Assembly: GCA_016218255.1 (NCBI GenBank)
Contig: JACREN010000002.1
Coordinates: forward strand, 4,029 to 68,028
DNA from: Candidatus Gottesmanbacteria bacterium
GTDB taxonomy: Bacteria > Patescibacteriota > Microgenomatia > UBA10105 > UBA927
Length of the DNA: 64,000 nt
Direction of reading: 5' to 3'
Of this stretch, positions 55 through 16,068 are shown in pieces. The position numbers and the translations under genes were made by a program. Under the pieces are notes generated by a model that was not told where the DNA came from, did not search any database, and saw only the letters and a list, made by a program, of their open reading frames with translations. Position 1 is the stretch's first letter. Every line of letters starts with the position of its first letter.

Positions 55-1185
55 CTAAGATAGAGTATTTTCCTTTTCATACTTTTTGATAATTTGTTCG
101 AATCGTCTGATAAACCGTTTCTCGGAAAACGTATCAGCCTGTTTCCGACATATTTTTGCATCAAATGAAATTAATTCAAAATCTCGAAAAGCCTTTTTTA
201 ACGACCCAACGGTATAGTCATAAAATAAAATTCCGGTCTTTTCGAAAACAACCGTTTCTCGGATACCGCCGCTTGCGTACGCAATAACCGGCACGCCCTG
301 TGCCATCGCTTCCACCGGTGCCATACCAAAATCTTCATCGATTGCGCACGATAACAGTGCCTTGGCACCAGCATACATGTCAGCCATTCTATTGTCCGGG
401 ACGAAACCACAAAAATGAACCGTCGGACCTGCAATAGATCTTAAACGTCTTTCTTCTGGCCCGGTACCGACAACATACAGGGGAAGCTTCAGGTCATTAC
501 ATGCACGGATTGCCAAATCAATTCCTTTTTGTTTTACCAACCTGGAAACACAAAGGAAATACAAACTCCTTGGCTTATTTAATACCTTAATGGATGGTAT
601 ATGCACCGAAGGATATATGACGATGCTTTTTCGTTTATAATAATTCCATATTCTTTTTTGCACCGTCTTGGAATTCGCAATCAAAATATCAGGACGCTGA
701 GCTCCTTCGAAATCCTTCTTTTTCAACCAGCCAAATAGCGGCGACAGCGCAAACTGAATAAACGGATGCTTCATCCATCGCATTTCATTATATTCGTTAT
801 ATAAATACCTCGGAGGCGTATGAATATATGAAACATGAAGAGTTCTCGAAGAAACCCGGATGGATTTAGAGGAAAACGAATGGGAAGAAGAAATCACCAA
901 ATCATAACCGGACAAATCAAGATGTTCCCAGTACCAAAATAGTATGGGTTTTAGAAAACTCGCGTATGTACTCAAGCGGGGGAAGCTACTCAAAATCGTG
1001 GTCCGGACATCACCGTTCGTTCTTTTTCTGATATCCCACCTATAAGCACGTTGGAGAATGGGAATATACATGTCCGCATCAGGAAACAATCGAAGCAACT
1101 GATACAGAACCCGCTCGGCGCCACCCAGACAAAGCACCGCGTCATGGACAATCGCGATTTTTCTAAATTTTCCATATTGTTTCAT
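55..1185 (-). CDS. glycosyltransferase family 4 (GT-B fold, GT1 superfamily)
   Basis: 376-aa ORF; C-terminal half has GT4 hallmarks (VVGTGPEERRLR; E-x7-E motif EDFGMAPVEAM; QGVPVIA). Confidence 0.8.
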   Translation of the reverse strand: MKQYGKFRKIAIVHDAVLCLGGAERVLYQLLRLFPDADMYIPILQRAYRWDIRKRTNGDVRTTILSSFPRLSTYASFLKPILFWYWEHLDLSGYDLVISSSHSFSSKSIRVSSRTLHVSYIHTPPRYLYNEYNEMRWMKHPFIQFALSPLFGWLKKKDFEGAQRPDILIANSKTVQKRIWNYYKRKSIVIYPSVHIPSIKVLNKPRSLYFLCVSRLVKQKGIDLAIRACNDLKLPLYVVGTGPEERRLRSIAGPTVHFCGFVPDNRMADMYAGAKALLSCAIDEDFGMAPVEAMAQGVPVIAYASGGIRETVVFEKTGILFYDYTVGSLKKAFRDFELISFDAKICRKQADTFSEKRFIRRFEQIIKKYEKENTLS

Positions 1186-1209: not shown

Positions 1210-2385
1210 TTATGGAATAATATCCTTTAAAGAATCATATACTGCTTCAGCAAAATATCTGTTCCCTAATGCATTGAGGTGCTTCCATCCAAAAGGAAAT
1301 TGCATTTCTTCAACCCGAAATAACGAATATGCTAAATTATCCGAGTTTATTCCAAGAGCATTCTGACCGATGTAAACCGGATGGCCTTCAGATCGTGTTC
1401 GAAGCGAAAGCAGTGCCGGATCATGAGATTGTGCAATTTTATCATTAACATCAATAAATATCTCACCCACGTTTTTCAATGTGTCGCGAAGTTGAGAATA
1501 TAAACCCACCGACCAGTGACGATAATCTTGAGCTTCATCAAAATACCATTGAAACGGTGCGAGGGTGACCACGAGCTGAATATTCCTCTTCTTCGTTTGT
1601 CGCTGCATTTCACGAATCAGATACTGGATTTTCTGAAACATAGCTTTCCGAACTTCTGTCAATGTTCCTTTTTCCGTACATCCCAACGTTATCCTTCCTA
1701 ATCCGGAAATTCTATTTGGCGCATACACAACAAAATTGGTTACGGCATACTGGAATAACCATTCAGGCATATGACGGATTAAAAGGCCTTGGACATACAG
1801 CGAATTTAGCCATCCCGGAAATTCTAAATAATTATTTCCGATCTTACGAATAAGACATGACTCATTTGCATCATTAATATCATTCATATTGAAATTCCAA
1901 ATAATCATATCTGGACTTTCATGAGAAAGAATTTCTTTTATATAAACATACTCCTGATCCGGACTGTACCCAGATATACCTGCATTATGTACAATAACTT
2001 TTGGTTTTTTCTGATGAAATAATTGCTCAAGTACCGCTGGATACGCTTGATCGTGAATTACTCCCTGACCATAGGTAAAAGAATCCCCAATCATAACTAT
2101 TTCATAAAAACTTTCTTTACCAGTAAGTCTCGGACGGTAAACAAATCGATAACCGTATTGGTCTGTGCCGTCATATTCACTTATGTAAATATTTTTCTGT
2201 ATAGAATAAATTTTGTTCCTGTCAAGTGAAAATAATAGCGATTTCGTTTTACCTACCTCTGTCACAAACGACCACGGCGAAGGATATGGTTCATAATGTT
2301 GTGCTCGAAGTATCAATTCCAGGCACACAAAGCCAACGAGCAAAGAAAGTGCTGTTGATATGGTGAACAACTCCAATCGCTTCAT
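1210..2385 (-). CDS. SGNH/GDSL-family hydrolase (putative glycan O-acetyl esterase/acyltransferase), N-terminal membrane anchor
   Basis: GDS(L) block MIGDSFTYGQGV near N-terminus after a single TM helix; start placed at internal Met (MMKRLELF...) to avoid 95-bp overlap with upstream gene. Confidence 0.6.
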   Translation of the reverse strand: MKRLELFTISTALSLLVGFVCLELILRAQHYEPYPSPWSFVTEVGKTKSLLFSLDRNKIYSIQKNIYISEYDGTDQYGYRFVYRPRLTGKESFYEIVMIGDSFTYGQGVIHDQAYPAVLEQLFHQKKPKVIVHNAGISGYSPDQEYVYIKEILSHESPDMIIWNFNMNDINDANESCLIRKIGNNYLEFPGWLNSLYVQGLLIRHMPEWLFQYAVTNFVVYAPNRISGLGRITLGCTEKGTLTEVRKAMFQKIQYLIREMQRQTKKRNIQLVVTLAPFQWYFDEAQDYRHWSVGLYSQLRDTLKNVGEIFIDVNDKIAQSHDPALLSLRTRSEGHPVYIGQNALGINSDNLAYSLFRVEEMQFPFGWKHLNALGNRYFAEAVYDSLKDIIP

Positions 2386-2395
2386 CATAACTGCA

Positions 2396-4372
2396 TTATC
2401 GCGCGTGTATCCGCCGAATAGCCTTCTGGAAAATTCCTGGGGTTGAGAACGCACCTCCCGATAACACAATTTGACAGTGATTTTTTGCATAGCGATCAGA
2501 TAAACATGATGCTATCACGTCATTTGCAGCCTGGCTATCAAAAAATCTATAGCGATACAATGCTGCAAGCTCTATAGAAAAATAGCTCCAATCAGGAGCG
2601 AAATCCCGCGCAAGGAGCCATAATTTTTTGGTTTCCATTAAGTCTTTATCTATCAAGGAAAGACCAATTAAATACATAAGTTTTGCATATGCTGTTGGAG
2701 TCTTTGCTGCAAAAATATCTGCATTATTCCGCGTATAGAAAGAAGCATACTCCGGAGCACCAAAATCTATACGCGCAATCTTGGTCCGCAACTCTTGTGG
2801 AAGCGCCACCTGACTTAGTCTGTTTATCGCCAAACCAATAACCGAAGGTGATATTGGACGCTTTTCGAATAGGTATTGTATATATTTTATATGATAATCA
2901 ACGTTTATCGGATCCCAACGAATGGCATTCTCATAAAAAGACTGAGTCTCATCTTGTTTGTTGATGCCCATATCGGTTTTAGCAGTTGCATACATCACCT
3001 CCGGGTCGCGGCGGTTTAACCACAATATACCCTTTTGAACCGCGTATGAGGATGCCAGCAATGCATCCAGGGCATTCTGCTTGTAATACGGAGCCGCATA
3101 CCATGCCCACTGCTTTTTTCCCGGCAGAACGCCGAACAAAACACCGGCCATGGAGGAAAGATAAAAGAGCAGCAGCACAAATAGAAACAGTTTTGTCCGC
3201 ATATATTGTGTGCGAGAGTCTAACGAAAATTGCAGAGATACACTGCCGGATGCAAGCCCAAGGCTCGCCCAAAACAATAACCAAATTGAGGAATAATTTA
3301 GATTGAATTCAAATACGCTATACAAAAGAATGAGAACAATCGGAACAAATAGGGGAGACCAAAAACTGCGGCGCAGTGATATACCCAAAATAAATATCAA
3401 AAGCACGGCGCCTACAAAACCCAACTCCACCACTGTCTCCAGCGGAAAACTGTGGGCATACCAGGAATACGTCTGCGGTGCCTCCTGAAGACGCTTAGAC
3501 TGAAGGAAGAACGTCCCGGGCCCGCTGCCAAATAACGGCCGTTCAGCTATCGCCATAGCCGCCTGCCTCCAATAGCCCCACCGGCTGTCCTGAGTGATCG
3601 GCCGCTTTACAATCTGGCGAATAAGCGCATTGGTTGATTTCTCAAAACGAAAAACGTCGTACCGAAGAGAAATGAATGACACAGCCCCAAACAGAACCAG
3701 AAACAAGCAGGCGAAACTAAAAATAACCCGGCGTTCGATTCGGTCGCGGCGCCATAAAAATTGCCCAAGCAAATATACAACAAGAAGCATCCATGCCGCG
3801 CGGGCAAACGTCAGAATCATACCCAATATAAATACTGAAACTATTACCCATCTCAATTTTTTGAAATCGTTCGTAAAAAAAATCAAAGGGAAAATAGGAA
3901 GCAGAAGATCCGCCAAATGATTATGTCCATAGTTGGCATACAAAAGATTCATGAGGGGTAAAAATTCAGCAAACGATGGGAACAGCATAAATACCCACGA
4001 CAACCCAATCGCGATAAACCCGATGGTAATAAGACTTTTCCGGTACCACATCACTGCGCCATCGGAAGCCACCGAATAAAACAGGATAAAAAGGAGGTAT
4101 CCTTCGATATAACGGATAGACGCGCTGACAGAATAGGCAATACTGTCCGAAAATAATGTCCGGCCTGCCATATAGAGAAGCAATACGATCCAACCCCGAG
4201 ATAGGGAGCGGGGAAGCGGACGAATTGTGAAAGACCCTAACGAAGCATACCGAATCGCATAGAGGATCAAGATGCCGAGCGCCCAAAATATGTCGACGAA
4301 CGGCTGTTTCCCGTCACCCACAAGGAGCGATACGGCAAACAAAAGGCAAAAGGCTACGGTCAGTCGTTTCAT
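2396..4372 (-). CDS. O-antigen ligase (Wzy_C) family polytopic membrane protein with C-terminal TPR-like region; candidate O-oligosaccharyltransferase (PglL/TfpO-like)
   Basis: 658 aa, about 10 predicted TM helices; Wzy_C signature RWGYWR...RPLFGSGPGTF...YAHSFPLETVVELGFVGA; C-terminal soluble repeat region. Confidence 0.65.
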   Translation of the reverse strand: MKRLTVAFCLLFAVSLLVGDGKQPFVDIFWALGILILYAIRYASLGSFTIRPLPRSLSRGWIVLLLYMAGRTLFSDSIAYSVSASIRYIEGYLLFILFYSVASDGAVMWYRKSLITIGFIAIGLSWVFMLFPSFAEFLPLMNLLYANYGHNHLADLLLPIFPLIFFTNDFKKLRWVIVSVFILGMILTFARAAWMLLVVYLLGQFLWRRDRIERRVIFSFACLFLVLFGAVSFISLRYDVFRFEKSTNALIRQIVKRPITQDSRWGYWRQAAMAIAERPLFGSGPGTFFLQSKRLQEAPQTYSWYAHSFPLETVVELGFVGAVLLIFILGISLRRSFWSPLFVPIVLILLYSVFEFNLNYSSIWLLFWASLGLASGSVSLQFSLDSRTQYMRTKLFLFVLLLFYLSSMAGVLFGVLPGKKQWAWYAAPYYKQNALDALLASSYAVQKGILWLNRRDPEVMYATAKTDMGINKQDETQSFYENAIRWDPINVDYHIKYIQYLFEKRPISPSVIGLAINRLSQVALPQELRTKIARIDFGAPEYASFYTRNNADIFAAKTPTAYAKLMYLIGLSLIDKDLMETKKLWLLARDFAPDWSYFSIELAALYRYRFFDSQAANDVIASCLSDRYAKNHCQIVLSGGAFSTPGIFQKAIRRIHAR

Positions 4373-4935
4373 TGCTTGGCATTCCGAATGGCAGCAGTCG
4401 TCTGAAATGAAGCGCTCGCGCGGTCGAATTGGTCCGGCGGCGTGCCCTTTTGCGCCAGACTAAAAATAATCGCCACCGTCGCCGGCTGACCTGCCGGCAT
4501 CGTACAGACAAACGTCAGACTGGAAGCATTGCAATCCGCTCCACCGAGCGTCAATGCACTGTCCGTCAGATACTCTGTCGTAGAAGCACTTACGGATGCA
4601 ATACGAGTCACGGTACCGTCCAGGAGACATCCCAAAGAGGTAGATTCGCCATCAGGATTTGTCAACGTGATACTGGACGATGAAGTCCCGCCCTCCGCAC
4701 ACGTCGAGGTCACTTCCGTTGCATTCCGAACAAGCTGATATATTCGCTCGAGAGAAAAATCACCGTTCTGTTTTACATTCTTTAATACTTCTGATTTTGC
4801 ATTGCTTCGGGTCGTGGTAAAAAATACCTGAGAAATCAAAACACCCACGACAGCCACAATGCCGATCGACACCATGATCTCCAGCAGAGTAAATCCCTGT
4901 TTTTTCCATGAATCATGAACATTTTTTATCGCCAT
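4369..4935 (-). CDS. type IV pilin-like (pseudopilin) with prepilin N-terminal cleavage/methylation motif
   Basis: N-terminus KKQGFTLLEIMVSIGIVAVVG (G-1, F+1, E+5) followed by hydrophobic helix; 4-bp overlap with neighbours. Confidence 0.75.
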   Translation of the reverse strand: MAIKNVHDSWKKQGFTLLEIMVSIGIVAVVGVLISQVFFTTTRSNAKSEVLKNVKQNGDFSLERIYQLVRNATEVTSTCAEGGTSSSSITLTNPDGESTSLGCLLDGTVTRIASVSASTTEYLTDSALTLGGADCNASSLTFVCTMPAGQPATVAIIFSLAQKGTPPDQFDRASASFQTTAAIRNAKQ

Positions 4936-5366
4936 CTTGTAAAGTTGGTTGTGAGCTCGCTTTTATGTTCACCCCGGCCGTCATCCCATGCCACTTTCGA
5001 TGCAACATTCATAACCGGATCAACCCATGTAAAAGTAAGGCTTCTTATGTAGATGCTGTCGACATTCACTGGACATACACTATTAGCAGATGCAGTCAGG
5101 ACATTTGTTTTATCCAGACAATAGACACCGCTTTTTTCTGCAAAACCGGTCCACCCGATATTGCGGAGGTTTCTGGCATACTCTATGCCTTCCTGAGAAT
5201 ATTTTAAGGCCAAACTCCTTGTTTTCCCCTCGTTGATATTCCGAAGCGATGCGGTCGTACCGACAATAATACCCGTTACTAACACTGTAACCACGCCAAT
5301 CACGACTACCGCCTCAACAAGCGATTGGCCAGACTGACCGGATGTTTTATAGAAATCCCAGATCAT
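4926..5366 (-). CDS. type IV pilin-like minor pilin
   Basis: N-terminus SGQSLVEAVVVIGVVTVLV (G-1, E+5) class III signal; 146 aa. Confidence 0.6.
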   Translation of the reverse strand: MIWDFYKTSGQSGQSLVEAVVVIGVVTVLVTGIIVGTTASLRNINEGKTRSLALKYSQEGIEYARNLRNIGWTGFAEKSGVYCLDKTNVLTASANSVCPVNVDSIYIRSLTFTWVDPVMNVASKVAWDDGRGEHKSELTTNFTRWR

Positions 5367-5829
5367 TTATGTCTCCTCCGGTTGAAACCTGTATGCGGTA
5401 TGATTTTACAATTCCGACCATTGTAATCGTTACCGCATCGCTTGAAAGCAGTCCCCGGGTTAACACGCCATAAACAAACGAGGCGGGCACAGGCGAAAAC
5501 GTAATTCCTGAGGGCAACGCGGTAGAAAGCGCATCTCCTACGGCGCCTTCTGTGCACTCTGCAACAACCGTATATGTCGAATCCGTAAATTGTACGGTAT
5601 ATCCCACAAGCTCAGTGCACCCGCTGGTTGGTTTTTTCGATGAAGCGGCAAGCGTCTGGGCATAACGAAGATTATTTTTCATCGTCAGGGCTGCCTGCTT
5701 CAAGCGCTGATTATCATTGTAATTATTATAATTAACGATAAGCCCGCCAACCGCAAGAAGTGAAATACCGATCGTCACGATAAGCTCTATGAGAGTAAAC
5801 CCAGAACGAGATGCAAAAAGCCGCTTCAT
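5347..5829 (-). CDS. type IV pilin-like minor pilin
   Basis: N-terminus RSGFTLIELIVTIGISLLAVGG; 160 aa. Confidence 0.75.
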   Translation of the reverse strand: MKRLFASRSGFTLIELIVTIGISLLAVGGLIVNYNNYNDNQRLKQAALTMKNNLRYAQTLAASSKKPTSGCTELVGYTVQFTDSTYTVVAECTEGAVGDALSTALPSGITFSPVPASFVYGVLTRGLLSSDAVTITMVGIVKSYRIQVSTGGDINDLGFL

Positions 5830-6266
5830 GGACTCTTGACCCCGAAATTATGGGCTGGGGTCTGCGATGCATCAGGGGTGCAGCTGTTACTTGCGGGCGT
5901 TTCTGCTTCAAGGTACGCGCTTACACAGTAGCCGTAATAACTGCCTCCCGAAACATCAGTTGCTTTATACCGGTATACATAATCGGGATCTTTTGGGTCT
6001 GCTGGGATAGACGGCATGTAGGTAGCCACTAAATCAGCACTTAAATTAGACATATCCGTCCAGCTACCGGCCCCGGTACTGGGATAATACCCATTGTCGG
6101 TTCGGTACATCTCGATAGCCGACCGGATCTGCTCGACGTCGCTTTTCCGCTTTGTATCACGGGATCTACGGTTTACCGATCCATACGATACGATACCTAT
6201 AGCAGTCAATATTGCGATAATAGATATCGCAACCAATATCTCCATGAGGGTAAATCCTTTTTTCAT
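5826..6266 (-). CDS. GspG/PulG-like pseudopilin
   Basis: MKKGFTLMEILVAISIIAIL...RDTKRKSDVEQIRSAIEMY (T2SS-G-like N-domain). Confidence 0.75.
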   Translation of the reverse strand: MKKGFTLMEILVAISIIAILTAIGIVSYGSVNRRSRDTKRKSDVEQIRSAIEMYRTDNGYYPSTGAGSWTDMSNLSADLVATYMPSIPADPKDPDYVYRYKATDVSGGSYYGYCVSAYLEAETPASNSCTPDASQTPAHNFGVKSP

Positions 6267-6268
6267 AA

Positions 6269-6712
6269 TTACTGAGCGCTTTTGACGCAGTACAACCCCG
6301 TGTATTCACTTGGTGCTGCGGCAGCTGCACAGTCCGTCACCTCATTGGCTTCTCCCTCAAGACCAGCACAAACACAAAAACTTGCAGCACTACAACTGCT
6401 CCATCCCGTGACCGTTGTGTAATCTGTTCCGCTCTTGGGATCAGTCGGCATACCGTTTGGCAAATATGTCACCGCCAGAGTGCAGGTAGCCGGATATGAT
6501 CCTTTATTGTCTGCATAATACTGCTCAAAACCATTCTGCACTTCCTTCAGATCGTTTTTTCGTCTGTTATCACGCGCCTTCTTTTGCCCTGTGGTATACG
6601 CCGAAACTGCGATCGAAACTAAAATCGCAATGACCGATACCGCCACCAATAATTCCATAAGACTAAAACCTATAGAATGTTTCCCCACCATGCGAGTATT
6701 TGAGTTTTCCAT
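6269..6712 (-). CDS. GspG/PulG-like pseudopilin
   Basis: GFSLMELLVAVSVIAIL...ARDNRRKNDLKEVQNGFEQYY; start moved to internal Met so it does not run into pilD. Confidence 0.7.
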   Translation of the reverse strand: MENSNTRMVGKHSIGFSLMELLVAVSVIAILVSIAVSAYTTGQKKARDNRRKNDLKEVQNGFEQYYADNKGSYPATCTLAVTYLPNGMPTDPKSGTDYTTVTGWSSCSAASFCVCAGLEGEANEVTDCAAAAAPSEYTGLYCVKSAQ

Positions 6713-7413
6713 AATATGGTGATAACGGTTCCTAAAATCAAAAAAGGACCGAATGCAACCCGGCTTTTCCACGTTTTATGTCTAGCTTTCATCAGTATGA
6801 CACCCACTCCAGCGCCCGTCAAGAACGCTGCATACAGCGCCACAACGATGCCTGGATACCCCAAAAGCAGCCCGAGCAGAAACACAAGTTTTACGTCTCC
6901 CAGTCCCATTCCTCGTCCGCCAGTCAATAACCAAAGAAGCAGAAAGAACACGGACGCTCCAAACGCGGAAATCCAAAAAACCTGCGCATGACGGACGTCA
7001 AAAACCGACCCAAGAAGACCTACTCCGATAATCCCCACCACCACCATACTGTCCGGAATTATTTGATATTTAAGATCTGCAAAAAAAATAACAATCAATG
7101 AGCAAAAAATAAGAACATATGCTGATAATTTGGTAATCGAATCAGCAAAATAAAAAAACAGCAATGCGAAACCAACACCAGTCAAAAGTTCAATGGCGGG
7201 ATACTGTAGCGAAAGCTTTTTGTGACACCGACGGCACCGGGCGAGCTGGATCACAAACGATACGATTGGAATAAGTTCGTACCACCGGAGCGTTTTTTTA
7301 CAATGATCGCAATGTGACCGACCATATACCACAGATTGCCCCTTTGGTAGCCGGTCGATAAGGACATTAAGAAATGATCCTATACATAACCCAAATAATC
7401 CTGCCAACCACAT
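6670..7413 (-). CDS. pilD: prepilin peptidase (A24 family) PilD
   Basis: N-terminal Zn-binding CIGSFLNVLIDRLP...SHCDHCKKTLRWYELIPIVSF, multi-TM A24 core. Confidence 0.85.
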   Translation of the reverse strand: MWLAGLFGLCIGSFLNVLIDRLPKGQSVVYGRSHCDHCKKTLRWYELIPIVSFVIQLARCRRCHKKLSLQYPAIELLTGVGFALLFFYFADSITKLSAYVLIFCSLIVIFFADLKYQIIPDSMVVVGIIGVGLLGSVFDVRHAQVFWISAFGASVFFLLLWLLTGGRGMGLGDVKLVFLLGLLLGYPGIVVALYAAFLTGAGVGVILMKARHKTWKSRVAFGPFLILGTVITILWKTQILAWWGNIL

Positions 7414-7443
7414 ACATATATCATACCATGATATACTTCAGCC

Positions 7444-9633: not shown

Positions 9634-11500
9634 TGCCTTCGTACAAATAAAGGGTTGGCTGTACCCGCGCAAGATCAGTTTCCCTAGCAGACCGAAAATG
9701 ATCCAATGCAGATGAGCAGTCTTTTAAAAACAGATCCGTAAGACCTGCATACGCATGCGCGTCACTTAGCTGGGTATCACCATCAGTATATATCGCCTTG
9801 GCAAAATACCGTTTGGCATCATCAAGCTTACCGATCCGAAGGAGCGTTTTGCCAAATTCCACCCCTGCACCCGCGTAGACATCCAGTACATCTGCAAGCA
9901 TAAGATGGCGGTAGCGTGCAAGAATACCTTTTTGAGGATCATGATACTGTTCCCACCGCACATTATTAACCGCAAGTACTGAATCCGTAGACGGCGCATC
10001 AGTGAGTCGCACCAGACGGTAAATTAATCCTTCCTGCACCCATGCTTCACCGGCTGAAACCGCCAGGGGATATACTGAAAATATCGGAAACCGGCTCCTG
10101 TTCATCGCGATAAAATCAGTCAAAAACGACTCGCCGGTTTTGGACGGAACGGATAATTTTGGAAAGACACGCGAAAGAACTACTGGATAATCTGCAGTCG
10201 CAAGTCTAGATGCGTGTATGACCATCACATCCGGACGCCGGCCCAATGCATACCGGACATATTGTACCGTAAAAAGCGGTGTATCCCGAGATACAAGCAG
10301 GATGCTGTCGGCATCCACACCCGCAAGAATATCATATGCCAAGGCATCAGCCGTTCTGTCATTTGTGACACCCTGGAACTTCCACATTGTCGCACCCATA
10401 ACCTTCATGGGATAAATAAGCATCAAAATCGCAAACACCCAAAATAACAATGTATTTCGCCGCACTAATTGTAAAGACTGCCAGTATCCCAATCCGATGA
10501 GCACGGAAAAAAGAACATACGAAGGAAGTAAAAACCGCTCATATGTACCCAAGGTAAACCTGTTCGCGAGCGGAAAACTCGCATAAAAGAAAAATACAGG
10601 CCCCAAGGAAATAAGGCCAATCACCAAAAACCAAAACAAGCCTCGCTTGTGGATCCAACACCATACAAAGCCCAATAAAAGAAGCAGTACCCCGACTGTG
10701 GTAAGGTCCAGGACGAGGAATTGCCCATAGGCTTTTAACTGTGTCATTCGCTGGGACAACAATGTGCCGAATGCATTACCGGATACAAACGTACCGTAAT
10801 CTGCGCGGGTGACCAACCGGACAAAGGAGGAGATATCCACAGGCCGATTCCAATTTATAATGGATGGCCCGTGGCCGGCTATCGGAAGATATACATATGG
10901 CAATAATCCGATCAACACATAAAAAGGCAAACGGAAAAACGTGTGCCGATCCAACAATTGCTTGTGAATATATATCCAATACAGCAATGCAGGAACAAAA
11001 AATAGTATGACGTGATGATGACTTAGTGATAATCCAAACACAAACAAAGCCCAATGAAAATATACGGGCTTTTTTGTTTCAGACCAATAAATAAACAGGG
11101 AAAAGAGCAACACAAGGAACAAATCAAAAAGTCCGAACACTTCGGGCGTGATGCTATAGAGAAAAAAAAGATAATTACCGGCGAGTACCAGCGCGGCAAA
11201 AAAACCGACAAAGGATTTTCCTGTAAACCGCGCCGCAAGCGCATACACGATAGTCACAGTTGCAGCGTGGGTGAGAGACGAAAGCAAGCCAACTCGCCAT
11301 GCCGGGGTAAACCAAGGCAACCAATTCAAAAACCAGCCCAACAACGTGTACAACGGATACCCAGGCGGGTGGGGTACGCCAAAGGTCGCAGCCGCCGTAA
11401 CCAAATCTCCGCTGTCGCCGCCAAAAATACCCTTTGTCTGAAACAAGAGAAACAAAAGAAAACTCGCGGCAAAAACAAAGAAGGAAAATCCGCGACCCAT
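9536..11500 (-). CDS. DUF2723 (TMEM260/PMT-like GT-C fold) membrane glycosyltransferase with C-terminal TPR
   Basis: N-terminal motif FGGDSGDLVTAAATFGVPHPPGYPLYTLLGW typical of DUF2723; multi-TM; C-terminal TPR-like repeats; start chosen at Met overlapping pilin stop (ATGA). Confidence 0.65.
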   Translation of the reverse strand: MGRGFSFFVFAASFLLFLLFQTKGIFGGDSGDLVTAAATFGVPHPPGYPLYTLLGWFLNWLPWFTPAWRVGLLSSLTHAATVTIVYALAARFTGKSFVGFFAALVLAGNYLFFLYSITPEVFGLFDLFLVLLFSLFIYWSETKKPVYFHWALFVFGLSLSHHHVILFFVPALLYWIYIHKQLLDRHTFFRLPFYVLIGLLPYVYLPIAGHGPSIINWNRPVDISSFVRLVTRADYGTFVSGNAFGTLLSQRMTQLKAYGQFLVLDLTTVGVLLLLLGFVWCWIHKRGLFWFLVIGLISLGPVFFFYASFPLANRFTLGTYERFLLPSYVLFSVLIGLGYWQSLQLVRRNTLLFWVFAILMLIYPMKVMGATMWKFQGVTNDRTADALAYDILAGVDADSILLVSRDTPLFTVQYVRYALGRRPDVMVIHASRLATADYPVVLSRVFPKLSVPSKTGESFLTDFIAMNRSRFPIFSVYPLAVSAGEAWVQEGLIYRLVRLTDAPSTDSVLAVNNVRWEQYHDPQKGILARYRHLMLADVLDVYAGAGVEFGKTLLRIGKLDDAKRYFAKAIYTDGDTQLSDAHAYAGLTDLFLKDCSSALDHFRSARETDLARVQPTLYLYEGITMRDCVGDAGRAKHLLQEYEDLKKKEETPLR

Positions 11501-12009
11501 TACTGGACGCAGAAGTAGCAGTCGGTGCCGCCGGTAGAAGTCTGCGACTTGCACCCGCTGGAGACTACTGCTCCATCTGTGCTATACGTCGTGTTGGTAT
11601 CGATCTGAAAAGATTTGGACTCCGGCTTGAAACAGACTGCCATATGCTCGGGAGCAGTCGAGGTGACCAGGACTTTCGCCAAATTCCCTGTTCCTGCCAG
11701 ATCCATAAACCGATTTTTGAGTTCTCCGGCGTTGATAAGATCAGTAACGTAGCTGCCCATCGTATCGACCCCTGATGCCGTAAACGATGAGCTTGTTCCC
11801 CAAGGAAAATTTCCCTTGGTGGCATAATAGCGGAGATTCGCGTTATAAAATTCTGCCGTGGTATTTCTCAGTGATGTATCACGACCTTTTTTCAATTGCT
11901 CAAATGGATCAATCGTTGCCAATAGTCCTACTGCCAAGGCACCCAGTAACGCAATAACGATAAGAAGTTCAATGAGGGTGAATCCTTTTTTGAGGTGGGC
12001 AGTATTCAT
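11500..12009 (-). CDS. pilA: type IV major pilin (PilA-like)
   Basis: MNTAHLKKGFTLIELLIVIALLGALAVGLLA; C-terminal Cys-rich segment (GCKSQTSTGGTDCYFC). Confidence 0.8.
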   Translation of the reverse strand: MNTAHLKKGFTLIELLIVIALLGALAVGLLATIDPFEQLKKGRDTSLRNTTAEFYNANLRYYATKGNFPWGTSSSFTASGVDTMGSYVTDLINAGELKNRFMDLAGTGNLAKVLVTSTAPEHMAVCFKPESKSFQIDTNTTYSTDGAVVSSGCKSQTSTGGTDCYFCVQ

Positions 12010-12054: not shown

Positions 12055-13266
12055 CTACTTAAACTGACTGGTGAGATTGTAAATGGGCGTAATAACGGAT
12101 ATCACGATAAATCCTACACCGACGCCCAATACGACCATAATAAGCGGCTCAATGGCAGTGGTCAGACCCCTGACAAGGTGCTCAGATTCCGATTCAAAGT
12201 AACGGGATAGCTTGGTAAGCGTATCGTCCAGCTTCCCGGTTTCCTCTCCCACTTTCATCATCTGCGACACAATCGGAGGAAACACCTCATACTGGCCGAA
12301 CGTTTCACCAAGGGGAAATCCTTTTTCCACTTTCTTGGCAATTTCACTGATTGCCTCGCGGAATAAGACATTACCAAGCGAATCCCGTAAGATATTGAGT
12401 CCTTCCAGGATATGTATACCTGCGGTAATAAGCATTGCGAGCGTTCTGGTAAATTCCACCAGAATAATTTTTTTCTGGAGCTCCCCAAAAAGAGGAATGC
12501 GGAGAATGAGGCTGTCCACCAGGTGTTCGCCGACAGACGTTTTTTTCCACCTCATAAATCCGATAGTCCCGCCGACAGACACCAGGATAATAAGCCACCA
12601 AAAATTCACAAAAAATCCGGACAGGGTAATGAGTACCTGAGTAGATGCAGGGAGCGACATCCCGAAATCCTTATACAATTCCGTCAATTTCGGGACAACT
12701 ACGGTCATCATGACCATAACAACCGCCATCATACCGATGACAATGATAACCGGGTAGATCATAGCGCCGGATACTTTGCTCCGGAATTCCCGCTGCGCTT
12801 CCAGTGTCTCGGCAAGCCGCAAAAGCACCTTATCGAGGGTACCCGATGATTCACCCGCATGCACGAGCGCGATATAAATATTGGAAAAATTTGCCGGATA
12901 CTTTGCCAATGAGTCTGCCAAATTACCGCCGCCCACGATCTGGTGTTCCACGTCCAAAAGAATCCGCGCGAATGCCGGATTGGTCGTCTGCGTACGCAAA
13001 ATCGTCAGGGCATCCGGAAGCGAAAGCCCTGCCACAATCATTGTCGATAATTGACGGGTAAAATTGACGATATCACCGAATCCGACCTTTTTGAATTTTG
13101 CCAATAACGCAGACAGCGATAAGTGTTCCTTGGATTCCGTCAATTTAATAACAAAAAGCTGTTTGTCGCGCAATAATTTCGTCGCAACATCACTACCAGG
13201 AGCTTCAACAAGACCGGAAATCGTTTTCCCTGATGTGTCCCGCGCTTTATAGGAAAAAAATGCCAT
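12055..13266 (-). CDS. pilC: type IV pilus assembly platform protein PilC (GspF family)
   Basis: 403 aa, two GspF repeats, 3 TM; N-term MAFFSYKARDTSGKTISGLVEAPGSDVATKLLRDKQLFVIKL. Confidence 0.85.
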   Translation of the reverse strand: MAFFSYKARDTSGKTISGLVEAPGSDVATKLLRDKQLFVIKLTESKEHLSLSALLAKFKKVGFGDIVNFTRQLSTMIVAGLSLPDALTILRTQTTNPAFARILLDVEHQIVGGGNLADSLAKYPANFSNIYIALVHAGESSGTLDKVLLRLAETLEAQREFRSKVSGAMIYPVIIVIGMMAVVMVMMTVVVPKLTELYKDFGMSLPASTQVLITLSGFFVNFWWLIILVSVGGTIGFMRWKKTSVGEHLVDSLILRIPLFGELQKKIILVEFTRTLAMLITAGIHILEGLNILRDSLGNVLFREAISEIAKKVEKGFPLGETFGQYEVFPPIVSQMMKVGEETGKLDDTLTKLSRYFESESEHLVRGLTTAIEPLIMVVLGVGVGFIVISVITPIYNLTSQFK

Positions 13267-13271
13267 ACCGG

Positions 13272-14324
13272 TTAATATTTAAGTAATCTTCCCAGCTCTT
13301 CCGGCCGCACCGCATAGGCTGTCGCTGTTTCTGCACTGATTTTGCCTTCCTTTACCGCGCGGGCAAGCGATGTCTCAAGGGTCATCATGCCCAGCTCTGC
13401 CGATGTCTGGATGACGTTGTCTAAAAGATGTGTCTTGCCTTCCCGAATCGTGTTTCGTACTGCAGGAGTTCCAGTAAGGACTTCTGCCACTGCCACACGG
13501 CCTCCTGCCACTGCAGGAACCAGTCGCTGGGAAAAGACTCCTTCCAGAGCAAAAGAGAGCTGCAGCCGCACCTGGCCCTGCTGGTTCTCCGGAAATACGT
13601 CCACAATACGGTCAATCGTCTGCGCCGCAGAATTTGTGTGCAGCGTGGCAAAGACTAAGTGTCCGGTTTCTGCTACAGTGAGCGCCGCCTGAATCGTTTC
13701 AAAATCACGCATTTCTCCCACCAGCACCACATCCGGATCCTCCCGCAGGACGCTGCGAAGCGCTACCGTCCAGGAATGCGTATCCTGATGCATTTCGCGC
13801 TGGGAAATGATGGAGAATCCCGGCGGATACACATATTCAATCGGGTCTTCAATCGTGACAATATGCGTCGCCTTTGTCTGATTAATGCTTTGAATCATCG
13901 CAGCCAGTGTCGTGGATTTTCCGTGCCCGGTCGGTCCGGTAACTAACACCAGCCCCTGACGCAATCCGACGAACTGTTTGCAAATAGTAGGGAGCCCCAA
14001 CTCATCAATCGATCTGATTTTTGATGGGATGAGCCGAAAATCCGCAGCTACTGTGCCTTTTTGATAGTAAACATTCGCACGAAACCTGCCCACCTGGGTG
14101 GCCACGGAGTAGTCGATTTCTCTATTGGTCAAAAACAATTCCTTTTGCTGGGGAGTAAATGTGGCAAAAACAAGCTGCTCCACGTCGGAAGGGGTCAGTG
14201 CTCCCGTTCCACCGATCGGCCCAAGTTTTCCTGAGACCCGAAGCATGGGTGCAAACCCAACGAGCAAATGGAGGTCTGCCGCTTCCAACCTGGCTGTTTC
14301 CGTAAATAATTGTTGTATATCCAT
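13272..14324 (-). CDS. pilT: twitching motility ATPase PilT
   Basis: Walker A VLVTGPTGHGKSTTLAAMI; PilT-type ...IVTIEDPIEY...; 350 aa. Confidence 0.85.
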   Translation of the reverse strand: MDIQQLFTETARLEAADLHLLVGFAPMLRVSGKLGPIGGTGALTPSDVEQLVFATFTPQQKELFLTNREIDYSVATQVGRFRANVYYQKGTVAADFRLIPSKIRSIDELGLPTICKQFVGLRQGLVLVTGPTGHGKSTTLAAMIQSINQTKATHIVTIEDPIEYVYPPGFSIISQREMHQDTHSWTVALRSVLREDPDVVLVGEMRDFETIQAALTVAETGHLVFATLHTNSAAQTIDRIVDVFPENQQGQVRLQLSFALEGVFSQRLVPAVAGGRVAVAEVLTGTPAVRNTIREGKTHLLDNVIQTSAELGMMTLETSLARAVKEGKISAETATAYAVRPEELGRLLKY

Positions 14325-14325: not shown

Positions 14326-16068
14326 CTAGTCCTGTGCTACCCTTAGCACTTCTTCAAGCGTTGTCACGCCTTCGATCGCCTTCATGTAGCCGTCCTGCTT
14401 CATCGTTATCATACCGTCATTGATCGCCTGATCTTCTATAGTTTTCATCGGCGTGCGGGCCAATATCAGTTTACTGATTGCCTCAGTCACTGGGAATACC
14501 TCAAACACACCCAACCGCCCGAGATATCCAGATCCGCCGCAGGTACCGCATGGCTGGCCGTCCACCGTTCCTTTGCCCCGGTATAGCTTGATCGGTTTAT
14601 CTTTTTGAAGCAGATTTCCAAGAACCGACGCGATATCTGTTTTCACTGATTCCTCAGGATCATATTCTTCCCGGCACGTCCCGCACACGCGACGGGCGAT
14701 ACGTTGACCAATCACTGCATTGAGGGCAGATGCCACCAAAAACGGCTCAGCGCCCAAATCAAGCAACCGTGGCACCGCACCTGCCGCATTATTTGTGTGG
14801 AGCGTAGAGAAGACCAAGTGTCCAGTCAGAGCAGCCTGTATAGCTAAATCTGTCGTTTCATTATCGCGGATTTCTCCCACAAGAATGATATTCGGATCCT
14901 GCCGCAGAAATGAACGTAATCCCGTCGCAAACGTCAATCCTGCTGTCGGATTTATCTGCACCTGATTGACACCGGCGATTTCGTACTCGACCGGGTCTTC
15001 AAGCGTCATGATATTCACCCGCGATGTATTGAGCTTGGCAAGCACAGCATAGAGCGTCGTGGTTTTGCCGGACCCGGTAGGTCCGGTGACCAGAATAATG
15101 CCATGCGGCCGGAGTACATTTATTTCAAGATTCTTAAGCGCCGTCCCGCGGAGTCCCAACTCCGGAAGCGTCGGAATTCCACCGGATTTCTTCAGCAAAC
15201 GCATGACTATCTTTTCCCCATGGACTGTCGGCAGTGTGGATACACGGAGGTCCACCTCAGAATCACCCATTTTGAAATTAAACCGTCCGTCCTGAGGAAT
15301 ACGTTTCTCGTCAATTTTCATATCCGCCAAAATCTTTATGCGCGATACCACTGCTTCCCGTAATCCCCGGGGAAGCGCAAGTCTCTCCTGCAAAATACCG
15401 TCAACACGATACCGCACGCGGGTATCTCCAATCTGCGGCTCTATATGTACGTCTGATGCACGAAGCCTCATGGCTTGCTCTAAAATCGCGGAAACAATCT
15501 GAGCGATCGGCGCCTCCCGTATGACCTCGCCGAGTTTCCCTGCCTCGTATGTCTTGACCGAAAGCGGAGCAGTCTCAGCCAGCGCCGCAGACACATCCTC
15601 ACCCAAATTTTGGGTATAGACATCTTCAATCGCTGATACAATGTCTTCCTTTGTACCCATAAACGGCAAAACGTGCTTGGCTGACTTTTTTTCCAAAAAC
15701 TCAATCACCTGAAAATCCAATGGATCGAGCATCGCAACAGATAACTCGCCCTTCTTTTCATCAAATGAAAAGGGGACAAGCGTATAGCGCCTCGCGACTG
15801 CTTCGGGGATAAAATTAACAGCATTTGGAGCTATGGCTTTGCCGGCAAGTATCACGAAGGCAATACCCATGGCTTTCGCCCTGGCCGCAACCAGATCGTC
15901 TTCTGTCACCATGTGTTTACGAATTAGTAATTTATCGAGGGCCTCTCCGGAGCTTAAAGACTCCGAGTTAATGGCGTCCGCCTGTTCGCGGGTAAGATGT
16001 TTTTGTTCAACGAGAACACTTAATAAATCAGCACTTGAGGCAGGCATACAAACAAAATCAAAAGGCAA
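14326..16068 (-). CDS. pilB: type IV pilus assembly ATPase PilB (GspE family)
   Basis: N-terminal GSPII_E_N-like domain, Walker A VTGPTGSGKTTTLYAVL, tetracysteine CGTC...CGTCGGSG. Confidence 0.85.
   Translation of the reverse strand: MPFDFVCMPASSADLLSVLVEQKHLTREQADAINSESLSSGEALDKLLIRKHMVTEDDLVAARAKAMGIAFVILAGKAIAPNAVNFIPEAVARRYTLVPFSFDEKKGELSVAMLDPLDFQVIEFLEKKSAKHVLPFMGTKEDIVSAIEDVYTQNLGEDVSAALAETAPLSVKTYEAGKLGEVIREAPIAQIVSAILEQAMRLRASDVHIEPQIGDTRVRYRVDGILQERLALPRGLREAVVSRIKILADMKIDEKRIPQDGRFNFKMGDSEVDLRVSTLPTVHGEKIVMRLLKKSGGIPTLPELGLRGTALKNLEINVLRPHGIILVTGPTGSGKTTTLYAVLAKLNTSRVNIMTLEDPVEYEIAGVNQVQINPTAGLTFATGLRSFLRQDPNIILVGEIRDNETTDLAIQAALTGHLVFSTLHTNNAAGAVPRLLDLGAEPFLVASALNAVIGQRIARRVCGTCREEYDPEESVKTDIASVLGNLLQKDKPIKLYRGKGTVDGQPCGTCGGSGYLGRLGVFEVFPVTEAISKLILARTPMKTIEDQAINDGMITMKQDGYMKAIEGVTTLEEVLRVAQD

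Follow-up and report, generated by a model that had tools for sequence, protein, structure and literature searches.

At one end of the window (the whole 64,000-nucleotide stretch of a Candidatus Gottesmanbacteria contig analyzed here) lies a row of minus-strand genes headed by the prepilin peptidase gene pilD, which is followed by five pilin-like genes, a gene for a Wzy_C-domain membrane protein with a TPR-like tail (Wzy_C-TPR), an SGNH/GDSL hydrolase gene and a GT4 glycosyltransferase gene that closes the row at the window edge (Table 1). Pfam searches and our reading of the DNA recover every gene that a sequence-only reading had named here, although that reading placed the row at 2396-7413 and the SGNH and GT4 genes fall outside, at 55-2388. 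It had also described spacings of 0-10 bp or overlaps, and the row is indeed tight throughout except for a 24-nt gap between SGNH and GT4: pilD overlaps the first pilin gene by ~22 nt, neighboring pilin genes overlap by 4-20 nt or leave a 2-nt gap, the stop codon of minor pilin 5 and the start codon of the Wzy_C gene share 4 nt (ATGA), and 7 nt separate the Wzy_C stop from the SGNH start. This gene spacing suggests a single operon from pilD to GT4.

Table 1. Genes of the row and of the surrounding pilus locus, in window coordinates
Feature	Coordinates	Strand	Evidence
GT4 glycosyltransferase, 376 aa, cytoplasmic	55..1185	-	Pfam Glycos_transf_1 E 5.9e-29, Glyco_transf_4 E 6e-9
SGNH/GDSL hydrolase, membrane-anchored (helix at N-terminus), 392 aa counted from MMKRLE, ORF reaches 2490	1210..2388	-	Pfam Lipase_GDSL_2 E 1.8e-11, Lipase_GDSL E 1.1e-7
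Wzy_C-TPR protein, 658 aa, WaaL/PglL-superfamily membrane enzyme	2396..4372	-	PF04932 E 2e-19, residues 179-326
Segment coding C-terminal TPR-like domain (residues 420-658)	2399..3115	-	Profile and model
Minor pilin 5, 188 aa, G↓FTLLE	4369..4935	-	N_methyl E 2.5e-6
Minor pilin 4, 146 aa, degenerate signal G↓QSLVE	4926..5366	-	N_methyl 16.1 bits, under Pfam cutoff of 21.2 bits
Minor pilin 3, 160 aa, G↓FTLIE, ComGD/GspH-like	5347..5829	-	N_methyl E 1.4e-4; NCBIfam ComGD E 4.4e-7
Pilin 2, 146 aa, G↓FTLME, GspG-like	5826..6266	-	T2SSG E 3.7e-8; N_methyl E 1.4e-6
Pilin 1, 140 aa from MVGKHSIG↓FSLME, ORF reaches 6772	6269..6691	-	N_methyl E 2.1e-5; GspG-like E 3e-8
Prepilin peptidase PilD, 247 aa	6670..7413	-	A24_N_bact E 2.9e-33; Peptidase_A24 E 2.1e-13
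YfhO-family GT-C membrane glycosyltransferase, 729 aa	7444..9633	+	Pfam YfhO E 3.1e-14
DUF2723/TMEM260-like GT-C glycosyltransferase, 654 aa	9536..11500	-	PF11028 E 6.5e-22; PMT_2 E 1.3e-5
Candidate major pilin (sixth pilin), 169 aa, G↓FTLIE, follows pilC	11500..12009	-	N_methyl E 1.8e-7
pilC	12055..13266	-	T2SSF E 1.4e-62
pilT	13272..14324	-	T2SSE E 9.6e-45
pilB	14326..16068	-	T2SSE E 3.3e-123, with MshEN

The row is merely the 3' part of a bigger pilus locus reaching 16068, in which pilB, pilT and pilC are the pilus motor and platform genes. Two GT-C glycosyltransferase genes inside this locus, DUF2723 and YfhO, had been overlooked by the sequence-only reading. The DUF2723 start codon overlaps the stop of the upstream pilin gene (TAATG); its product carries a TPR region at the C-terminus, and the AlphaFold model (pLDDT 85) has STT3, ALG12, PglB and DPY19 as top Foldseek matches. 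The YfhO gene points away from pilD, with 30 nt between the two, and toward DUF2723, overlapping it by ~98 nt at the 3' ends. As for the pilins themselves, all five in the row had been described as GFTL(I/L)E-type, and four do carry a canonical G↓F(T/S)L(L/I/M)E signal, but minor pilin 4 has G↓QSLVE and scores under the N_methyl cutoff. Ser and Thr make up 18-24% of the pilins, whereas the median in 48 other window proteins is 11.9%; pilins in general are often high in Ser/Thr. The candidate major pilin has a Ser/Thr-rich C-terminus, with S+T at 37% of its last 30 residues; none of the window pilins ends in Ser or Thr.

The Wzy_C signature of the 658-aa protein holds up well, as PF04932 matches all 28 family members scanned and the residues R191, R264, G282, G284, H307, C623 and C633 are invariant across the family. 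The protein consists of a transmembrane catalytic part (residues 1-415) and a TPR-like domain (420-658), and its AlphaFold model (pLDDT 91, pTM 0.89) is all-helical over residues 420-653. No Pfam TPR model matches the window protein at E<0.01, but a search with the family profile finds consensus TPR proteins (E 5e-13 to 1e-5), such that the TPR tail of the sequence-only reading survives as a TPR-like helical repeat. Four helices separate the catalytic loop from this tail in the model, which predicts that the domain faces outward on the same membrane side as the loop; in four related loci (L001, L015, L017 and L027) the TPR-like part is a separate ORF whose product starts with charged residues and a membrane helix.

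Candidate-phyla bacteria such as the host of this protein are generally described as lacking an outer membrane, which sets it apart from the best solved-enzyme match of the family profile, 9rmk_A (E 1.9e-11, profile positions 180-542). Judging from residue numbering, 9rmk_A appears to be PglL (PglO), the general O-oligosaccharyltransferase of Neisseria (PMC3643930, PMC9829042). The two share the Wzy_C domain and an Arg/Arg/His triad (R191, R264 and H307, aligned to R224, R298 and H349), a GxG motif after a conserved Pro, a conserved Glu in the next outer loop (G282, G284 and E355 corresponding to PglL-specific G316, G318 and E404), a large extracytoplasmic helical C-terminal domain, a size class of 550-660 aa, and a gene that is usually unlinked to the pilin substrate. 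They differ in that identity is only ~15-25%, Y351 and N357 stand where PglL has H400 and P406, Pfam scans find neither the PglL_A motif (PF15864) nor Wzy_C_2 in Wzy_C-TPR, and the TPR-like repeat that forms the tail of the latter is longer and contains two conserved cysteines (C623, C633). The O-antigen ligase WaaL (7tpg) gives a poorer profile match (E 2.1e-6), partly because the 9rmk_A alignment includes the helical tail, and is the top Foldseek match of the model (7tpg_B, E 2e-4, target-normalised TM-score 0.54), with the catalytic residues shared. Sequence alone cannot separate ligase, polymerase and protein transferase roles within the Wzy_C family.

Genomic context in relatives placed the Wzy_C-TPR gene mostly elsewhere. 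At 23 of the 33 related loci, the orthologous gene adjoins dnaA-dnaN (dnaA ≤4 genes upstream) and heads an envelope-glycan cluster, with GT2, GT4, WecG/TagA, an epimerase, a second, TPR-less Wzy_C protein and DUF4330 following, as well as an ABC-2-type permease that we suspect from reading the sequence; no pilins lie within 10 kb of these 23 orthologs. Pilins adjoin the gene in just 2 of the 33 loci, a pattern that tells largely against the pilin linkage the sequence-only reading had proposed. In a neighbor-joining tree, the window gene and its counterpart in L001 are nested inside the dnaA-adjacent orthologs; pilin linkage is not ancestral. Elsewhere in the family, a paralog is divergently adjacent to pilins in L032, and more distant members (L138, L139) sit in plain glycan clusters.

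The pilin/Wzy_C junction of the window recurs in one close relative only, L001. Since the junction is unique to this small lineage and falls exactly at the synteny break with relatives, it might be a chimeric join in a metagenome contig, but we consider such an assembly artefact very improbable: L001 is an independent metagenome-assembled genome from another study, at 63% protein identity, with the same gene order and junction, both Wzy_C copies read as shortened at the N-terminus, and the junction is an in-frame ATGA overlap. Downstream, L001 carries WecG/TagA, GT2, a second Wzy_C gene and DUF4330, the same genes as its dnaA-adjacent sister locus L006, with SGNH and GT4 missing within 10 kb of flank, so that Wzy_C, SGNH and GT4 are not conserved together as a three-gene module. 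An SGNH gene lies directly after Wzy_C in L006 and within ~2 kb downstream in L009 and L028, and in L008 a probable GT4 ortholog (E 2e-126) follows Wzy_C at a distance of 5 kb; in relatives, these homologs belong to the dnaA-side glycan locus.

The pilus locus, by comparison, has an identical gene order across 53 loci: pilB-pilT-pilC-pilin-DUF2723, then an oppositely oriented YfhO, followed by pilD and the minor pilins, five in number. The position of minor pilin 4 is kept in other loci, and orthologs of minor pilin 5 close the row there. What follows is pilM together with pilO-like genes in 13 of 18 other pilus loci, and a Wzy_C gene in none of the 18. DUF2723 lies immediately 3' of the pilin gene in 45/45 loci with upstream sequence, YfhO follows it in all 37 loci of sufficient extent (on the other strand in 36 and on the same one in L104), and wherever the contig reaches, the pair separates the main pilin gene from pilD. 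The two GT-C enzymes are thus more consistent candidates for pilin glycosylation than Wzy_C-TPR. TfpW is a GT-C membrane enzyme whose gene adjoins the major pilin gene. In Pseudomonas aeruginosa Pa5196 it is an oligosaccharyltransferase that glycosylates pilins (bioRxiv 10.1101/2020.04.19.049825), and we compare it with the window DUF2723 gene by description only; eukaryotic TMEM260, which O-mannosylates specific domains of proteins (PMC10214176), combines a DUF2723 GT-C part with a TPR tail, as the window protein does.

Homologs in other candidate-phyla bacteria present a different picture. Genes of a distant Wzy_C-TPR family, A3 (hhalign 99.7%, E 1.3e-25, 600 columns), adjoin pilins or pilD in 8/8 places examined, and in the Parcubacteria-type layout the Wzy_C-TPR gene immediately follows pilin genes and precedes pilD, with genes for GT2, GT4 and a methyltransferase in between. 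Homologs have become joined to pilins or pilD several times, each independently. Synteny inside one candidate phylum is weak functional evidence, since flanking housekeeping genes are conserved there too. The Parcubacteria-type layout most closely copies that of TfpO/PilO (Pseudomonas aeruginosa 1244, Acinetobacter) and TfpM (Moraxellaceae), pilin-specific O-oligosaccharyltransferases of the Wzy_C family whose genes lie in the pilin operon directly after the pilin. At 420-470 aa, TfpO and TfpM are shorter than the window enzyme and have no large domain at the C-terminus. Encoded after the major pilin, they glycosylate the Ser or Thr at its C-terminal end (PMC9829042), whereas the window enzyme comes after the fifth minor pilin, in a locus where no pilin ends in either residue.

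The Parcubacteria-type gene order, the ATGA overlap, the close spacing as far as GT4 and the recurrence of the junction in L001 would all suit a dedicated module, in which Wzy_C-TPR, SGNH and GT4 jointly produce a glycan, modify it and place it specifically on the five neighboring pilins. We regard this as unlikely, given the 23 dnaA-adjacent orthologs without nearby pilins, the 18 pilus loci lacking the gene at this position, the L001 flank without SGNH and GT4, the dnaA-side membership of their homologs, and the lack of C-terminal Ser or Thr.

A somewhat better, though still doubtful, alternative is that Wzy_C-TPR ligates or polymerises a lipid-linked polysaccharide of the cell surface onto a lipid or cell-wall acceptor, its position behind the pilins being a neutral consequence of rearrangement. 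The conserved cluster of WecG/TagA, GT2, GT4, epimerase, second Wzy_C protein and suspected permease agrees with this, as do the WaaL fold match, the missing PglL_A motif and the glycan-cluster setting of L138 and L139; the dnaA-adjacent default context would suit a non-protein acceptor equally well. However, candidate-phyla bacteria are generally held to be without lipopolysaccharide, in which case the classical WaaL acceptor, lipid A-core, would be missing. TPR domains are usually protein-binding, and the one here, absent from WaaL, is predicted on the catalytic-loop side of the membrane; the TPR-less second Wzy_C protein of the same clusters could be the polymerase, and the repeated, independent linkage of homologs to pilins or pilD also speaks against this alternative. 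Among single-membrane bacteria, WsaB/WsfB (Geobacillus, Paenibacillus) are Wzy_C-domain S-layer O-oligosaccharyltransferases that move glycans of an ABC-transporter-dependent lipid-linked pathway to surface proteins; we liken them to Wzy_C-TPR by description only, and no S-layer gene was identified in the window.

We therefore favor, at about even confidence, reading the row as the meeting point of two modules, each separately conserved in Gottesmanbacteria, with Wzy_C-TPR a broad-specificity PglL-type O-oligosaccharyltransferase that counts pilins among its substrates. The first module would be the type IV pilus locus from pilB to the five minor pilins, and the second would be Wzy_C-TPR-SGNH-GT4 and onward, the head of an envelope-glycan locus that is dnaA-dnaN-adjacent in most relatives. 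A rearrangement in the window's small lineage would have brought the second module directly behind the last minor pilin, to the site of the relatives' pilM and pilO-like genes, and the Wzy_C gene, as judged from spacing, consequently appears co-transcribed and translationally coupled with the pilins. The glycan would be assembled in the cytoplasm by GT4 and by further transferases encoded past the window edge. It tells against this reading that the window contains no initiating phosphoglycosyltransferase, flippase or transporter, which leaves the donor pathway out of view. Wzy_C-TPR would then transfer the preassembled, lipid-linked (undecaprenyl-diphosphate) glycan on the membrane's outer face, with the TPR-like domain beside the catalytic loop selecting the acceptor, and the membrane-anchored SGNH enzyme may modify the glycan extracellularly, for instance through O-acetylation or de-O-acetylation. 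O-oligosaccharyltransferases that modify internal sequons come with a larger periplasmic domain at the C-terminus (PMC9829042), and Wzy_C-TPR may modify such sequons too, with pilins as substrates in the window lineage but without being dedicated to them. The specifically pilus-tied enzymes of Gottesmanbacteria are the DUF2723/TMEM260-like and YfhO GT-C transferases, which would use polyprenyl-phosphate donors to place single sugars on the major pilin.

The claim that Wzy_C-TPR acts on pilins draws support from the ATGA coupling, the PglL-type match and the pilin-linked homologs, but is opposed by the other 18 pilus loci and the dnaA-nested tree. Together, these results suggest that Wzy_C-TPR is probably a PglL-like glycan transferase of broad specificity, recruited to a pilus operon, and that it plausibly glycosylates pilins in a small lineage of uncultured Gottesmanbacteria.

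The gene row that the sequence-only reading had described on the minus strand of this Candidatus Gottesmanbacteria window (Patescibacteria, candidate phyla radiation) stands with small corrections, because all of its genes are present and its junctions are tight: the stop codon of the last pilin and the Wzy_C start codon share an ATGA overlap (read directly from the DNA), and gaps of 7 nt (Wzy_C to SGNH) and 24 nt (SGNH to GT4) follow, an operon-like coupling. One correction concerns the five pilin genes, all of which had been credited with a canonical motif; G|F(T/S)L(L/I/M)E is indeed canonical in four, which together with the pilin at 11500-12009 score above the N_methyl cutoff, but the one at 4926-5366 carries the signal G|QSLVE and reaches only 16.1 bits, below the Pfam cutoff. 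The row makes up just the 3' portion of a longer pilus locus, further along which the stop codon of the sixth pilin and the start codon of the DUF2723 gene overlap as TAATG. NCBIfam returned no match for either the window Wzy_C protein or pilD, and Pfam searches of the remaining 40 window ORFs revealed no initiating transferase, flippase or GT2. A search of the 64-kb window likewise found no dnaA, dnaN, recurrent glycan-cluster families or pilM/N/O, the last of which follow the minor pilins in most relatives. Scans for promoters and terminators were uninformative, with promoter-like sites fewer than in shuffles and terminator-like sites all inside coding regions.

Table. Positions of the pilus and glycosylation genes in the window and of Wzy_C-TPR genes in comparison loci (L and P handles denote loci of relatives and homologs)
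Locus	Feature	Position	Strand	Evidence or arrangement
Window	GT4 glycosyltransferase	55-1185	minus	
Window	SGNH/GDSL hydrolase, membrane-anchored	1210-2388	minus	
Window	Wzy_C protein, 658 aa	2396-4372	minus	PF04932, E 2e-19
Window	Five pilin-like genes	6269-6691, 5826-6266, 5347-5829, 4926-5366, 4369-4935	minus	N_methyl above cutoff in four; G|QSLVE at 4926-5366
Window	pilD, prepilin peptidase	6670-7413	minus	A24_N_bact, E 2.9e-33, and Peptidase_A24, E 2.1e-13 (both domains of the A24 class)
Window	YfhO-family GT-C gene	7444-9633	plus	30 nt from pilD
Window	DUF2723/TMEM260-like GT-C gene	9536-11500	minus	
Window	Sixth pilin, 169 aa, candidate major pilin	11500-12009	minus	N_methyl above cutoff; DUF2723 comes next
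Window	pilC, pilT, pilB	beyond sixth pilin, up to 16068	minus	
L001	Split Wzy_C-TPR gene	10001-12410		transmembrane ORF + TPR ORF
L015	Split Wzy_C-TPR gene	8050-9905		transmembrane ORF + TPR ORF
L017	Split Wzy_C-TPR gene	9935-11936		transmembrane ORF + TPR ORF
L027	Split Wzy_C-TPR gene	9929-11938		transmembrane ORF + TPR ORF
L035	Parcubacteria-type Wzy_C-TPR genes between pilin(s) and pilD	3837-14762		
L134, L135, L136, L137, L140, L141, P0214 place	Parcubacteria-type Wzy_C-TPR genes between pilin(s) and pilD			

Elsewhere in the window, comparison with two Gottesmanbacteria pilus loci (L081 and L082) showed gpmA-pgk-gap inserted between holB and gyrB, and a soluble inorganic pyrophosphatase where these relatives have a membrane H+-pyrophosphatase (16771-19560 and 21720-22229). 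At 34779-37017, a tyrosine recombinase (Phage_integrase, E 1.2e-43) adjoins about 1.3 kb holding just one short unannotated ORF (36033-36392), which may be a mobile-element remnant; the sole window tRNA (tRNA-Leu, 49675-49761) is not near the recombinase. In a 427-aa protein (29658-30941) the sole domain is a C-terminal OmpR-type winged helix, a receiver domain being absent, and near it, with a D-Ala-D-Ala ligase-like gene between, lies a stand-alone C39-like peptidase (28083-28676) with no adjacent ABC transporter.

The Wzy_C protein matches PF04932 over residues 179-326 (70.3 bits against a cutoff of 31.7), as do all 28 scanned members of its family. It has about 70 homologs at 28-63% identity (one at 100%), nearly all of them 640-700 aa long and from Gottesmanbacteria; we disregarded the JGI label 'putative inorganic carbon transporter' on some homologs, presumably a legacy name of this Pfam family. 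The AlphaFold model (pLDDT 91, pTM 0.89) shows a multi-helix membrane fold resembling WaaL, in which an outer loop is catalytic, and Foldseek against the PDB placed WaaL first (7tpg_B, E 2.1e-4, TM-score 0.54 normalised to target), with TPR proteins next. Searching PDB sequences with the single protein returned only noise, so that the family profile was required for a match; its best real enzyme was 9rmk_A ('Oligosaccharyltransferase', 610 aa; E 1.9e-11, profile positions 180-542, with the alignment extending as far as chain residue 557), compared with E 2.1e-6 for WaaL (7tpg). We infer that 9rmk_A is Neisseria PglL, since its chain numbering reproduces the N. meningitidis PglL residues listed by Schulz et al. 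(R224, R298, P313, G316, G318, H349, H400, E404 and P406; PMC3643930).

Seven residues are invariant in the 28-sequence alignment (R191, R264, G282, G284, H307, C623 and C633), and three of these, R191, R264 and H307, align to R224, R298 and H349 of 9rmk_A, an Arg/Arg/His triad common to PglL and WaaL. Among the residues described as PglL-specific (Q178, N180, G316, G318, H400, E404 and P406; PMC3643930), G316, G318 and E404 are kept as G282, G284 and E355, H400 and P406 are changed to Y351 and N357, and Q178 and N180 fall beyond the aligned region. At E<0.01, neither PglL_A (PF15864) nor PF11846 matched the window protein, nor did they match a single one of the 28 family members, and because PglL_A is a defining sequence test we do not file the protein as PglL; by its sequence it is a Wzy_C-superfamily member with PglL-like architecture. 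Putatively, the enzyme works most like PglL and has broad specificity, a reading we hold with middling confidence.

The Wzy_C domain plus TPR tail of the sequence-only reading was partly borne out by Pfam: PF04932 was recovered, but no Pfam TPR model matches the window protein, and each such model matches only one or two of the 28 relatives. The TPR likeness comes instead from Foldseek and from the family profile, which matches consensus TPR proteins at positions 480-545 (E 5e-13 to 1e-5), and in the model residues 420-653, a tail of about 240 aa, consist entirely of helical hairpins. Four modelled membrane helices lie between the outer catalytic loop and the tail; in four relatives (L001, L015, L017 and L027) a natural break divides the gene immediately ahead of the last of these helices, and the tail ORF opens with a short charged stretch and a membrane helix; and the tail holds an invariant cysteine pair (C623, C633). 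Taken together, these three features indicate that the TPR-like domain of the modelled protein lies outside the cell, beside the active site. In L001 the Wzy_C and TPR parts are 430 nt apart, and that copy may be damaged. A large C-terminal periplasmic domain is also the arrangement of the internal-sequon enzymes PglL and PglS (PMC9829042), with which the Wzy_C-TPR protein shares a large C-terminal extracytoplasmic domain.

We rejected an identity with the pilin-specific enzymes TfpO/TfpM on size, gene position and pilin C-termini. Those enzymes have 420-470 aa without a large C-terminal domain, whereas the window enzyme has 658 aa including its tail, and their genes lie directly downstream of a major pilin ending in Ser/Thr, whereas the window gene follows the fifth minor pilin. 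The C-terminal residues of the six window pilins are Q, R, L, P, Q and Q, and the absence of a terminal Ser or Thr argues against a TfpO/TfpM-type mechanism. Ser/Thr-rich pilin C-termini, which the pilin-glycosylation proposal had suggested looking for, were found in part: all six are rich overall (Ser plus Thr 18-24%, against a median of 11.9% and a maximum of 19.9% in 48 other window proteins), but the strongest C-terminal enrichment (37% of the last 30 residues) belongs to the 169-aa pilin beside DUF2723, outside the row originally noted. An 'NPTP'-like motif common to Parcubacteria pilins was not accepted as a glycosylation sequon because its site coincides with what we take to be the conserved structural motif of GspG-type pilins.

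We scanned 33 loci of the Wzy_C family, one genome per species with up to 10 kb on each side, seeking pilin neighbours by profile searches with the window pilus proteins and by a prepilin-motif scan. Linkage to pilins is mostly not conserved: pilins lie beside the Wzy_C-TPR gene in only 2 of the 33 loci, whereas dnaA lies at most four genes upstream in 23, mostly as dnaN-dnaA-(RGP-like)-Wzy_C, and the downstream genes include those for GT2, GT4, WecG/TagA, an epimerase, another Wzy_C protein that lacks the TPR tail, and DUF4330. One of the two is a deep paralog (L032) divergently adjacent to three pilin genes; the other, L001 (63% identity), comes from an independent genome and matches the gene order of the window exactly at the pilin/Wzy_C junction, which excludes an assembly chimera. 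In a neighbour-joining tree the window and L001 proteins nest inside the dnaA-adjacent orthologs, and downstream of its Wzy_C gene L001 carries the same genes (WecG/TagA, GT2, second Wzy_C gene, DUF4330) as its dnaA-adjacent sister L006, with no SGNH or GT4 within the flank of up to 10 kb. From the side of the pilus, 53 Gottesmanbacteria loci recovered via the DUF2723 protein all keep the order pilB-pilT-pilC-pilin-DUF2723-YfhO-pilD-minor pilins. Sequence extends past the last minor pilin in 18 of them; the next gene is pilM or one for a 287-aa protein in 13 of the 18, with pilM, a pilN-like gene and pilO next in those 13 where the contig extends, and a Wzy_C gene follows in none (0/18).

From the dnaA-side orthologs, the 18 pilus loci and the lack of dnaA, dnaN and pilM/N/O in the window, we infer a rearrangement in a small lineage by which the minor-pilin operon came to end at the head of a glycan locus that is intact in other respects; the N-terminus, which by our reading of the sequences is shortened in both the window and L001 copies relative to orthologs, fits such a join. 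That Wzy_C, SGNH and GT4 form a dedicated pilin O-glycosylation module, as first proposed, now seems improbable: the junction with the pilins recurs in L001, and no SGNH or GT4 gene accompanies it in that flank. Somewhat less unlikely, though still doubtful, is a ligase or polymerase that does not act on protein and stands next to the pilins incidentally. The WaaL-like fold and the orthologs' place at the head of a surface-glycan cluster are compatible with this; none of the loci read showed lipid A genes, and candidate-phyla bacteria are not known to make lipopolysaccharide. Taken alone, the window gives a more modest result, namely that in one particular lineage a core glycan gene has been fused to a pilus operon.

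The same loci yielded several side observations. An RGP homolog (PF03214, E 1.7e-50) lies between dnaA and the Wzy_C gene in nine loci, among them L004, L008, L009, L011, L025 and L027; this 'reversibly glycosylated polypeptide' family is plant-type and unusual in bacteria. Upstream of dnaN-dnaA, most Gottesmanbacteria (L002-L030; e.g., L006 675-9796) carry a conserved set of genes for a TraG/VirB4-like P-loop ATPase, a large protein resembling M23-type peptidases in its C-terminal sequence and two unknown proteins; the set resembles a secretion or conjugation-type module close to the replication origin. Gottesmanbacteria-typical loci also occur in many 'binchicken' genomes that bear the title 'uncultured Gammaproteobacteria bacterium' (L002, L005, L007, L011 and others), and these labels appear to be wrong.

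Wzy_C-TPR genes also lie in pilus loci of other candidate-phyla bacteria. A Falkowbacteria locus (L035) holds two Wzy_C-TPR genes, three GT2 genes and one PMT_2 GT-C gene between a major pilin and pilD, and we looked at the genes around homologs of the first of these two Wzy_C-TPR proteins in eight places (28-100% identity). Pilins lie directly upstream in six of the eight and pilD at most eight genes downstream in six, with at least one of the two in all eight; the most compact, L141, reads pilin-pilin-Wzy_C-TPR-GT2-pilD among housekeeping genes, and at the P0214 place genes for a Wzm/Wzt-type transporter come immediately after the Wzy_C gene. Partner genes across these loci encode GT2, GT4, GT8, a methyltransferase or Wzm/Wzt, and two remoter members (25% identity) sit in plain glycan clusters. 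This Parcubacteria-type family is homologous to the window family over its full length, tail included (hhalign 99.7%, E 1.3e-25, 600 columns), and judged by gene content its cluster amounts to a glycosylation island inside a pilus locus. Wzy_C-TPR genes thus neighbour pilin or pilD genes in three separate places, namely the Parcubacteria-type family, the L032 paralog and the window/L001 lineage, which we assume to be independent events; a neighbourhood gained repeatedly in this way would argue for a functional link.

In Gottesmanbacteria the slot between pilin and pilD is filled by two GT-C genes, which on this synteny are better-conserved pilus-linked candidates than Wzy_C-TPR. In each of the 45 loci whose sequence reaches upstream, DUF2723 comes immediately after the candidate major pilin, and YfhO follows DUF2723 in all 37 with downstream sequence, convergently in all but one, with 3' overlaps of 53-122 nt in the window, L081 and L082. 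Since flanking gyrA, gyrB and holB are also syntenic, such conservation within one candidate phylum is only moderate functional evidence. The DUF2723 protein matches PF11028 (E 6.5e-22), the Pfam family of human TMEM260, and carries an acidic motif of invariant G28, D29 and D32 in its first outer loop; its model (pLDDT 85) ends in a TPR-like tail of helices at residues 505-649, with TPR Pfam matches in several homologs, and Foldseek returned the GT-C enzymes STT3, ALG12, PglB and DPY19 (E 1.5e-5 to 1.4e-3), most of which glycosylate proteins. PF11028, GT-C fold, acidic motif and C-terminal TPR together place the gene in the TMEM260-like GT-C class as a putative protein glycosyltransferase; TMEM260 acts as a protein-specific O-mannosyltransferase, and its TPR tail is believed to choose the substrates (PMC10214176). 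The YfhO protein matches PF09586 (52.8 bits against a cutoff of 28.5) and, weakly, NCBIfam PgfM1/PgfM2. In Bacillus, enzymes of the YfhO type add sugars to lipoteichoic acid (PMC5836110), and in streptococci PgfM1 belongs to the Pgf machinery by which surface adhesins are glycosylated (PMC5856776, bioRxiv 10.1101/2022.10.10.511621). Our literature search met DUF2723 only in the TMEM260 study and found no bacterial role, and the pilin-DUF2723-YfhO arrangement offers a testable first role for bacterial relatives of this human O-mannosyltransferase.

For the window enzyme, we regard a PglL-like, broad-specificity Wzy_C-TPR O-oligosaccharyltransferase as an evenly balanced working reading. Under it, a glycan would be assembled on a lipid carrier by GT4 and other transferases encoded past the window edge and then exported, and the Wzy_C-TPR enzyme would transfer it en bloc to Ser/Thr of surface proteins, pilins included, with the TPR domain choosing acceptor proteins and the SGNH enzyme modifying the glycan outside the cell. 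More tentatively, Patescibacteria pili may be routinely glycosylated by pilus-locus enzymes, with the pilin-pilD slot filled differently in each lineage: by Wzy_C-TPR and glycan-building genes in the Parcubacteria type and by DUF2723 and YfhO in Gottesmanbacteria, while the window lineage would carry both kinds, its general Wzy_C-TPR enzyme being also fused to the minor-pilin operon.

In Proteobacteria, enzymes of the Wzy_C family are well known to glycosylate pilins, a modification that shapes phage resistance, antigenicity and adhesion, and type IV pili are believed to serve Patescibacteria episymbionts in finding and holding their hosts. We found nothing comparable in the literature for candidate-phyla bacteria, and no prior description in searches on pilin-linked O-oligosaccharyltransferases, on DUF2723 next to pilins or on glycosyltransferases with Patescibacteria pili; in the one candidate-phyla pilus paper found to mention glycosylation, the sites are only software-predicted (PMC12206443). 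We consider the occurrence of glycosylation genes within pilus loci of several lineages a more valuable lead than the window alone. If the PglL-like reading is true, enzymes of this kind with a TPR acceptor-binding tail would extend to bacteria described as single-membrane and without lipopolysaccharide, and if the slot is used as suggested, bacterial DUF2723 proteins would gain a first functional context as pilin O-glycosyltransferases. Glycosylated pili, if present, would bear on host recognition and phage evasion by these ultrasmall episymbionts.
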